From assembly GCF_003018255.1 (NCBI RefSeq), contig NZ_CP027440.1: DNA of 64,000 bases; one strand, given 5' to 3'. Positions 42,479 through 43,481 of this stretch are shown one piece after another. The notes beneath the pieces are model-generated. The model saw only the letters and a program-made list of their open reading frames with translations, was not told the DNA's origin and did not search any database. The first letter of the stretch is position 1. Each line of letters starts with the position of its first letter. This DNA comes from Escherichia coli (GTDB lineage Bacteria; Pseudomonadota; Gammaproteobacteria; Enterobacterales; Enterobacteriaceae). The position numbers and the translations under genes are program-made.

Positions 42479-42565
42479 TGGTACCCGGAGCGGGACTTGA
42501 ACCCGCACAGCGCGAACGCCGAGGGATTTTAAATCCCTTGTGTCTACCGATTCCACCATCCGGGC
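42479..42565 (-). tRNA. leuZ: tRNA-Leu (anticodon UAA), including encoded 3' CCA
   Basis: Reverse complement is GCCCGGATGGTGGAATCGGTAGACACAAGGGATTTAAAATCCCTCGGCGTTCGCGCTGTGCGGGTTCAAGTCCCGCTCCGGGTACCA, a type II tRNA with long variable arm. Confidence 0.95.
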
Positions 42566-42577
42566 TCGGGAAGAAAG

Positions 42578-42651
42578 TGGAGGCGCGTTCCGGAGTCGAA
42601 CCGGACTAGACGGATTTGCAATCCGCTACATAACCGCTTTGTTAACGCGCC
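42578..42651 (-). tRNA. cysT: tRNA-Cys (anticodon GCA)
   Basis: Reverse complement is GGCGCGTTAACAAAGCGGTTATGTAGCGGATTGCAAATCCGTCTAGTCCGGTTCGACTCCGGAACGCGCCTCCA. Confidence 0.95.
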
Positions 42652-42705
42652 AAATTCTTCAGGCCTTTCAGCCAGACATCCGCTTGACGCCGATGTCTTT
42701 TAAAC

Positions 42706-42781
42706 TGGAGCGGGAAACGAGACTCGAACTCGCGACCCCGACCTTGGCAAGGTCGTGCTCTACCAACTGAGCTATTCCCGC
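42706..42781 (-). tRNA. glyW: tRNA-Gly (anticodon GCC)
   Basis: Reverse complement is GCGGGAATAGCTCAGTTGGTAGAGCACGACCTTGCCAAGGTCGGGGTCGCGAGTTCGAGTCTCGTTTCCCGCTCCA. Confidence 0.95.
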
Positions 42782-42932
42782 ATTCATCAAGCAATCAGTT
42801 AATCACTTGATTTTATTATCGTCTGGCAATCAGTGCCGCCGTTCGATGCGTTGCATTCTACTTACCTGGCGCGATGAGTCAACGATATTTTTCACCACTT
42901 TTGATCGTTTGCTGAAAATTGCGCCGAAACGA

Positions 42933-43481
42933 TCACTGATCAAGCAAATCTGCACGCGCAGCGCTCAAATATTGCAACATTGACCACAGAGTCAGTACCG
43001 CAGCCACAAAGAAAAGTGCAATACCGGCGTACTCAACCCAAATGTTCGGACGCCACAGCAGCCAGGCCAGCGCCACCATCTGGGCAGTGGTTTTCACTTT
43101 CCCAATCCAGGAGACAGCCACGCTACTGCGTTTACCCAACTCCGCCATCCATTCGCGTAACGCAGAAATAATAATTTCACGGGCGATCATCGTTGCTGCC
43201 GGTAAGGTCACCCACCAGCTGTGATAATGCTCGGTTACCAGCACCATGGCGATAGCCACGAGAACTTTATCTGCTACAGGGTCAAGGAAAGCACCAAACC
43301 GGGTACTCTGGTTCCAGCGGCGTGCCAGAAAACCATCGAACCAGTCAGTCACCGCCGCGACGCAGAAAATGAGCGCGGCGGCAAACGGCGACCAGGTGAC
43401 AGGCAGATAAAAGACCAATACAAAGAATGGGATAAGGATGACACGGAACAGTGTAAGCAACGTAGGGATATTAAATTGCAT
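42933..43481 (-). CDS. pgsA: CDP-diacylglycerol--glycerol-3-phosphate 3-phosphatidyltransferase
   Basis: 182 aa, [30 protein letters not shown]-alcohol phosphatidyltransferase motif (DGFLARR). Confidence 0.96.

Follow-up and report, generated by a model that had tools for sequence, protein, structure and literature searches.

The 64,000-nucleotide (nt) stretch of Escherichia coli DNA analysed here (NCBI RefSeq assembly GCF_003018255.1, contig NZ_CP027440.1; hereafter the window) carries on its minus strand, at positions 42412-42882, what is almost certainly the E. coli glyW-cysT-leuZ operon: three tRNA genes with a promoter of their own, a 3' trailer (3'ETS-leuZ; ETS, external transcribed spacer) that serves as a sponge for the small RNA (sRNA) RyhB, and an empty chromosomal attachment site (attB). 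The locus is already known, a textbook tRNA operon, and we found no evidence contradicting the assignment; its modest value is that of a calibration case. A description of the same DNA made from the letters alone (the original prediction) had given it as pgsA followed by a three-tRNA cluster and a strong terminator, with no genomic island present.

Identity of the locus

The window was compared with E. coli K-12 MG1655 (NC_000913.3, 1991620-1992276), from which it differs by 2 substitutions in 657 nt between the end of pgsA and the start of yecA. One of them affects the palindrome that follows the pgsA stop codon, the other a position upstream of yecA; none falls in the operon, and from the -35 element through the end of the terminator U-run the two sequences are 100% identical. 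The K-12 record has glyW (b1911), cysT (b1910), leuZ (b1909) and the noncoding RNA 3'ETS-leuZ (b4759) in exactly this layout. The genes, their order and strand, the spacers of 54 and 12 nt, the promoter, the trailer, the terminator and the neighbours pgsA and yecA are all as in K-12, and the two substitutions entail no functional differences. The elements of the operon are as follows (all positions are those of the window).

42855-42882, minus strand: sigma-70 promoter of the tRNA operon (-35 element TTGACT, 42882-42877; 16-nt spacer; -10 element TAGAAT, 42860-42855)
42782-42848, minus strand: predicted 5' leader of the primary transcript, ~66 nt, partly conserved in sequence
42706-42781, minus strand: glyW, tRNA-Gly(GCC) (ARAGORN; Rfam tRNA model, 69.1 bits; K-12 annotation)
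42652-42705, minus strand: spacer between glyW and cysT, 54 nt (from the ARAGORN coordinates)
42578-42651, minus strand: cysT, tRNA-Cys(GCA) (ARAGORN; Rfam tRNA model, 54.0 bits; K-12 annotation)
42566-42577, minus strand: spacer between cysT and leuZ, 12 nt (from the ARAGORN coordinates)
42479-42565, minus strand: leuZ, tRNA-Leu(UAA), with a long variable arm (ARAGORN; Rfam tRNA model, 57.7 bits; K-12 annotation)
42412-42478, minus strand: 3'ETS-leuZ, 3' external transcribed spacer of 67 nt, annotated in K-12 as a small regulatory RNA (b4759)
42436-42447, minus strand: RyhB-pairing core AGCAGUGUCGUG inside 3'ETS-leuZ, forming a helix of 12 base pairs (bp) with RyhB nt 35-46, CACGACAUUGCU
42412-42435, minus strand: intrinsic terminator (stem 42428-42435 with 42416-42423; UUCG loop 42424-42427; U-run 42412-42418)

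ARAGORN called exactly three tRNA genes in the whole 64 kilobases (kb), all on the minus strand and head-to-tail, and all three scored above the gathering score of the Rfam tRNA model RF00005 (29 bits). The CCA 3' end is encoded in glyW, cysT and leuZ alike. The identities, order, strand and spacers given in the original prediction are right, and the tRNA calls fall where it had placed them.

The arrangement is widely kept. A 2-kb query around the locus, across which yecA, tRNA-Leu, tRNA-Cys, tRNA-Gly, pgsA and uvrC are annotated, matched 5425 of the 5426 complete E. coli genomes, with 100% identity in the best matches; the segment with pgsA and the tRNAs was matched in every genome among the matches listed. 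For the comparison between genera, species-representative genomes were scanned for the leuZ 3' end, and the region upstream of glyW was extracted where present. Fifty operon-context loci, drawn from many enterobacterial genera, showed the same arrangement, and wherever such a locus reached far enough to include pgsA, the end of that gene lay 430-477 nt upstream of the leuZ 3' end.

Together with the literature, these data suggest the following course of expression. RNA polymerase would start mainly at the operon's own strong sigma-70 promoter (TTGACT-16-TAGAAT), and the transcript would comprise a leader of ~66 nt, glyW, the 54-nt spacer, cysT, the 12-nt spacer, leuZ and the 67-nt trailer, ending at the UUCG hairpin with its U-run. 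After an RNase E cut 1-2 nt beyond each encoded CCA, the tRNAs would be completed by RNase P and 3' exonucleases, and the cut behind leuZ would free the 67-nt 3'ETS-leuZ. The single-stranded core AGCAGUGUCGUG would then pair with RyhB, an iron-stress sRNA (the trailer also pairing, as published work has it, with RybB), and drive RyhB decay, so that 3'ETS-leuZ would soak up leaky sRNA expression, its own level being limited by poly(A)-dependent decay. The segment that begins with the leuZ anticodon loop and closes with the terminator is at the same time the attachment site of P2-like and lambdoid phages. The layout, the K-12 identity, the conservation of promoter, pairing core and terminator, the RyhB complementarity and the empty attB come from the present analysis; the polycistronic transcript, its RNase E processing, the sponge activity and the polyadenylation come from published work.

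Promoter and transcription unit

TTGACT-16-TAGAAT is the best promoter-like site of the region and agrees with the consensus at 10 of 12 positions; an A-rich stretch lies upstream of it and a G+C-rich GCAACGC follows the -10 element. The form TTGAC(T/G)-16-TAGAAT was found in all 53 distinct enterobacterial upstream regions (Escherichia, Salmonella, Citrobacter, Klebsiella, Enterobacter, Kosakonia, Cedecea, Mangrovibacter, Edwardsiella and others), where it is embedded in a strongly conserved block, GTAAGTAGAATGCA(A/T)CGCATC, of which GTAGAATGCA and CGCATC are invariant. Because the promoter is kept in 53 of 53 regions, we conclude that the tRNA cluster has a dedicated and deeply conserved promoter. 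Judging from the promoter geometry, transcription would start near 42847-42848, ~7 nt after the -10 element. Two further features define the region upstream of the promoter.

42933-43481, minus strand: pgsA, open reading frame (ORF) of 182 amino acids, CDP-diacylglycerol--glycerol-3-phosphate 3-phosphatidyltransferase
42902-42935, minus strand: conserved block at and just after the pgsA stop codon, TGATCGTTTCGGCGCAATTTTCAGCAAACGATCA, an imperfect palindrome without a U-run (sequence, fold and alignment)

The original prediction had put the tRNAs directly downstream of pgsA and had spoken of a conserved mixed mRNA/tRNA arrangement. The adjacency is real and is conserved, but the distance between pgsA and glyW is 151 nt with the promoter inside it, which makes this adjacency and not fusion, and the co-transcription implied in that wording is not supported, given a promoter present in every upstream region. 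The alternative that pgsA and the three tRNA genes form one mixed unit, in which the tRNAs are obtained chiefly by read-through from the pgsA promoter, nevertheless deserves consideration. All the genes lie on the same strand, the gap is only 151 nt, and no canonical intrinsic terminator was found between the pgsA stop codon and glyW, either with a consensus scanner or by folding of the palindrome; since no such terminator was found, read-through from pgsA into the tRNA genes is possible, and its occurrence to some extent is made plausible by the maintenance of the adjacency across enterobacterial genera. Against the alternative stand the near-consensus promoter in the gap with its invariant -10 context and the literature, in which the primary transcript is described as glyW cysT leuZ, a polycistronic tRNA transcript (PMC2190699, PMC3082872). 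Maturation of this transcript begins with an RNase E cut 1-2 nt after each CCA (PMC2190699), and inactivation of RNase E causes the polycistronic precursor and the spacers to build up (PMC2190699, PMC3082872). A full-text literature search found no paper naming both glyW and pgsA, and Rho-dependent termination after pgsA is also possible. On balance we consider the mixed unit unlikely.

The comparison with true mixed operons of E. coli leads in the same direction. In secG-leuU and thrU-tyrU-glyT-thrT-tufB, as here, a coding gene and tRNA genes lie close together on one strand with an intrinsic terminator at the end; the former is discussed as a polycistronic transcript in PMC2241853. In a mixed operon, the tRNAs would be expected to depend on the promoter of the upstream coding gene and to have none of their own, whereas at the present locus the 151 nt that separate pgsA from glyW contain a dedicated, deeply conserved promoter, and the primary transcript that has been described consists of the tRNAs only. 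A coding gene beside tRNA genes does not by adjacency alone make a mixed operon.

As for the block after the pgsA stop codon, CAGCAAACGAT within it is invariant in the cross-species alignment rows shown. Because the palindrome is not followed by a U-run, it is not a canonical terminator. Its left arm is altered in L019 and L037 without compensation, which gives it more the appearance of a DNA site, placed upstream of the tRNA promoter, than of an RNA hairpin or terminator. A G-N13-C motif with an AT-rich centre occurs ~40 nt upstream of the -35 element; a candidate Fis-type site would be our guess.

A further observation concerns the two ends of the transcript. The glyW leader (42807-42824) and the leuZ trailer (42455-42472) share an 18-nt similarity (15 of 18 positions), AGA(C/U)(G/A)A(U/G)AAUAAAAUCAA on the RNA strand, with cross-species conservation of either segment. 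Chance may account for the similarity, or else a shared AU-rich feature recognized by RNase E or Hfq.

The trailer 3'ETS-leuZ as a RyhB sponge

The K-12 noncoding RNA b4759 (67 nt) abuts leuZ and corresponds to 42412-42478 of the window, with identical sequence. In K-12, 3'ETS-leuZ is cut out of the LeuZ precursor by RNase E and has a Rho-independent terminator at its end; it forms pairs with RyhB and brings the RyhB level down, with less regulation of sodB and sdhCDAB as the consequence, and it is itself removed by decay dependent on poly(A) polymerase (PAP I) (PMC6191717). Mutations of the pairing region suppress the RyhB instability in a pcnB mutant (PMC6191717). Because the window is identical to K-12 in the trailer, these published results transfer directly. 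The segment that the original prediction called a terminator does contain one, which forms the 3' portion of the regulatory RNA annotated in K-12. What reads as a "tRNA cluster plus terminator" can conceal a functional regulatory RNA, in this case one that buffers leaky RyhB expression and so affects iron-stress regulation.

The pairing with RyhB was evaluated with the RyhB sequence taken from the K-12 record. The duplex that 3'ETS-leuZ forms with RyhB had an energy of -45.8, against a mean of -26.4 for shuffled sequences, a value that 0 of 500 dinucleotide-shuffled trailers attained. Across the 43 distinct trailers found in operon context, the positions G33, C34 and A35 and the motif TGTCGT (T37-T42) of the pairing core show no variation, with G36 conserved to at least 90%; variation occurs in the ~12 nt that directly follow the CCA.

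The terminator hairpin, AAACCACC-UUCG-GGUGGUUU followed by U's, had a folding energy of -12.5 kcal/mol. Its stem has 8 pairs in the covariation count and 9 in the fold (one of them G-U), and a T7 run follows. Across the 43 distinct enterobacterial trailers, 98.8% of the cells of the helix were paired, and 9 of the 43 showed a compensatory switch from A-U to G-C at one position. The covariation score was reached by 0 of 500 shuffles and collapsed in every slid-register control, whereas the loop varies freely (UUCG, GAAA, UACG, UCCG and longer forms). The intrinsic terminator named in the original prediction at 42412-42435 is thereby borne out. A pairing site that is single-stranded and conserved in sequence, with a terminator conserved in structure behind it, is the pattern that the sponge model would predict.

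Several results weigh against this reading and have to be set beside it. A contiguous 12-bp helix with RyhB was reached by 43 of 1000 mononucleotide shuffles, and the helix taken by length is thus only moderately significant. For RybB, 3'ETS-leuZ offers an 8-bp helix with the RybB 5' end (nt 3-10), which was no better than that of shuffles by the crude measures used (energy, 240 of 500; helix length, 957 of 1000); we take the RybB interaction solely from the literature. The 74-nt trailer as a whole folded no better than shuffles (z = -0.72) and so gave no sign of structure other than the terminator, which is to be expected because the pairing region is mostly single-stranded and accessible. 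Lastly, a simple consensus terminator scanner listed nothing in 41500-44000 and so missed the hairpin. Because folding and the comparative data support the helix strongly, we regard this as a false negative, probably because the extended stem takes up half of the U-run.

These points bear on the explanation in which the 67-nt trailer is a mere processing spacer with a terminator, its conservation coming from the terminator, from RNase E recognition or from use of the block as an attachment site. The terminator part is clearly functional by itself, AU-rich trailers are what RNase E typically acts on (PMC2190699), the block moreover serves as a target of recombination, which is a possible constraint, and the RybB pairing is indistinguishable from chance. 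Such an explanation fits poorly with the distribution of conservation: the most conserved unpaired segment is the RyhB core, while the RNase E site beside the CCA varies. The RyhB duplex moreover exceeded every one of the 500 shuffles, RefSeq annotates a regulatory RNA, and in K-12, where the sequence is identical, mutations of the core suppress RyhB instability (PMC6191717), so that genetics has largely refuted the explanation already. We consider it very improbable and retain the sponge as the function of the trailer.

The Rfam search returned no family for 3'ETS-leuZ. Sub-threshold matches over the terminator (STnc130, 26 bits against a threshold of 55; sroD, 20 against 50; and IRES_Bip) were discarded as generic terminator-like or chance hits.

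Another tRNA precursor is reported to yield a sponge of this kind, namely that of metZ-metW-metV, whose internal spacer is said to be likewise a by-product of tRNA processing that pairs with RyhB or RybB. The two differ in position: the metZ-metW-metV element is reportedly an internal spacer, whereas 3'ETS-leuZ is a 3' trailer with a terminator.

The empty attachment site at leuZ

In this strain leuZ is the empty attB of a busy and already known integration site. The features concerned are the following.

42410-42533, minus strand: unoccupied attB identity block, 124 nt, defined by junction alignments and present in a single copy in the window
41618-42283, minus strand: yecA, intact ORF of 221 amino acids, the downstream neighbour (Pfam UPF0149 and SEC-C; annotation)

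The attB block begins at the base that opens the leuZ anticodon loop and takes in the 3' end of the tRNA, all of the 3'ETS and the terminator. Integration at leuZ is documented for Sp13 of O157:H7 Sakai and for O121:H19 and O145:H28 elements (PMC8190617, PMC8767318, PMC7067040). These elements and the attachment site of the phage mEp390 (attP) use the same chromosomal point, with an attachment block corresponding to 42410-42533; they differ from the window in that the window carries no element.

The absence of an island, as originally predicted, was confirmed in several ways. No second copy of the 3' 25-mers of the three tRNAs or of a 30-nt trailer probe was found in the 64 kb with up to 3 mismatches allowed, and there is accordingly no partial tRNA duplication in that range; no relevant direct repeats were found within 9 kb. 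Bracketing repeats of this kind are seen in other genomes, which serve as positive controls. No integrase gene is annotated beside leuZ in a 99.5%-identical genome, whose annotation over the whole window shows only core genes around it. A degraded island or prophage remnant hidden at leuZ can be dismissed as close to impossible: such remnants exist elsewhere (L135, with 499 extra bp that include a second leuZ 3' half, trailer and terminator) and ~30% of the genomes are interrupted at this point, but in the window the 195-nt gap between leuZ and yecA matches K-12 except for one substitution, the 25-mers and the trailer are single-copy, relevant direct repeats were not found, and integrase-like annotation is confined to a fragment near 62.2 kb.

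This fragment is annotated in NZ_AP045067.1 and is the sole integrase-like annotation there; it is short, lacks both ends, and falls at ~62223-62363 of the window, between yedL and fliE, a placement made by collinearity only. Its distance from leuZ is ~20 kb, and the two are unrelated.

Occupation of leuZ in other genomes

In the original prediction, tRNA genes were said to be common integration sites; this is true, and it understates the case of leuZ, a documented attB that is very often occupied. yecA and pgsA were collinear within the 2-kb query in 3781 of 5425 complete E. coli genomes, and it is from this collinearity that the figure of ~30% interruption derives. In the 11 non-collinear genomes that were sampled, the break point fell without exception at 803-814 of the query, corresponding to 42402-42413 of the window, at the end of the U-run. 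Intact sequence beside a tRNA gene can mean an attachment site that happens to be empty, here one with an occupant in roughly one third of the species, and recognition of this state helps in comparing the prophage content of strains.

The occupants at leuZ were P2-like prophages, island remnants and IS200. In two sampled genomes a P2-like prophage follows the break, with ogr, hok/gef, tail and capsid genes. In WP7-S18-ESBL-09, the integrase of a P2-like prophage adjoins yecA, and the junction on the integrase side repeats the exact 124-nt block (window 42533-42410, minus strand); the prophage is ~36 kb long and is bracketed by this exact repeat (junctions L002 19529-20090 and L005 15856-16211). 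The integrase type of WP7-S18-ESBL-09 was found in 525 genomes. In E. coli 23CRST035 (L135 685-1378), an island remnant of 499 bp lies between leuZ and yecA with copies of the block on both sides, and the displaced copy has a substitution in the pairing core (GCAGTGTCGT to GCTGTGTCGT).

GMF065 (L004 2185-3090) carries an element of the IS200/IS605 family of insertion sequences just after the leuZ terminator, at about 42408-42410 of the window. The insertion falls at the same few bases as the prophage junctions; the terminator hairpin may be a target feature of IS200/IS605.

Among the species-representative genomes, displaced partial leuZ copies were present at 10 loci. Their identity runs back from the CCA for 55-56 nt, to the anticodon loop, or for 33 nt (L077, L091 and L131 versus L036, L057, L061, L092, L104, L115 and L124). 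These two classes suggest that the integrases involved belong to two lineages or more, each crossing over at its own point within the tRNA gene.

Phage-borne alleles of leuZ and its trailer

The 3' half of leuZ together with a trailer-like segment was also found in the attP regions of unrelated temperate phages, namely the free lambdoid phages mEp390 (L011 1499-1619, annotated attP) and Fostie (L012 ~1500-1620) and Pectobacterium phage ZF40 (L014 378-~500). The terminators of these three copies show compensatory changes, for example CCACC-GAAA-GGTGG and CCGCC-GAGA-GGCGG, and the trailers keep the RyhB-complementary motif GCA(G/A)TGTCGT; the ZF40 version would pair with RyhB without the G-U pair. 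Escherichia phage 520873 was not accepted as a free-phage attP, because its record includes yecA and is therefore an excised prophage region, which is not independent evidence of an attP.

Because the attP carries the 3' half of leuZ with the full sponge and the terminator, the 3'ETS-leuZ expressed after integration would be the phage allele, and the host allele of the trailer would be displaced next to yecA, where it would be promoterless. In O157:H7 LSU61 (L003 ~20000-20066), the trailer on the leuZ side differs from the allele of the window and K-12 at two positions (GAU to GCU near the 5' end, and the last U of the U-run to C), which fits a phage-derived allele. Selection for sponge function might shape phage attachment sites, or lysogeny might tune the buffering of RyhB and RybB noise; we regard this idea, which concerns other genomes and not the window, as rather improbable. 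The ordinary alternative is the most likely one, namely that the phages mirror the host sequence because restoration of the whole block is needed to keep an essential single-copy tRNA properly terminated.

Flanking genes and the remainder of the window

Both flanking genes were found intact, as originally predicted, with full-length ORFs and Pfam matches. The match of the pgsA ORF to PF01066 (CDP-OH_P_transf) spans the full profile (E = 6e-39), and pgsA is also annotated in the RefSeq record of a genome identical over this stretch. The whole window is collinear with E. coli JNE23-011 (99.5% identity by BLAST) and contains ordinary core genes from aspS to fliF. A position-by-position comparison with NZ_AP045067.1 gave 29,081 mismatches, which were rejected as register shifts after small insertions and deletions, BLAST giving 99.5% identity and collinearity. 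At ~935, in the nudB-aspS intergenic region, the window has ~125 nt fewer than NZ_AP045067.1, probably a repeat-element polymorphism. The tap gene, annotated as a pseudogene in NZ_AP045067.1, is intact in the window (ORF of 534 amino acids, 20831-22435).

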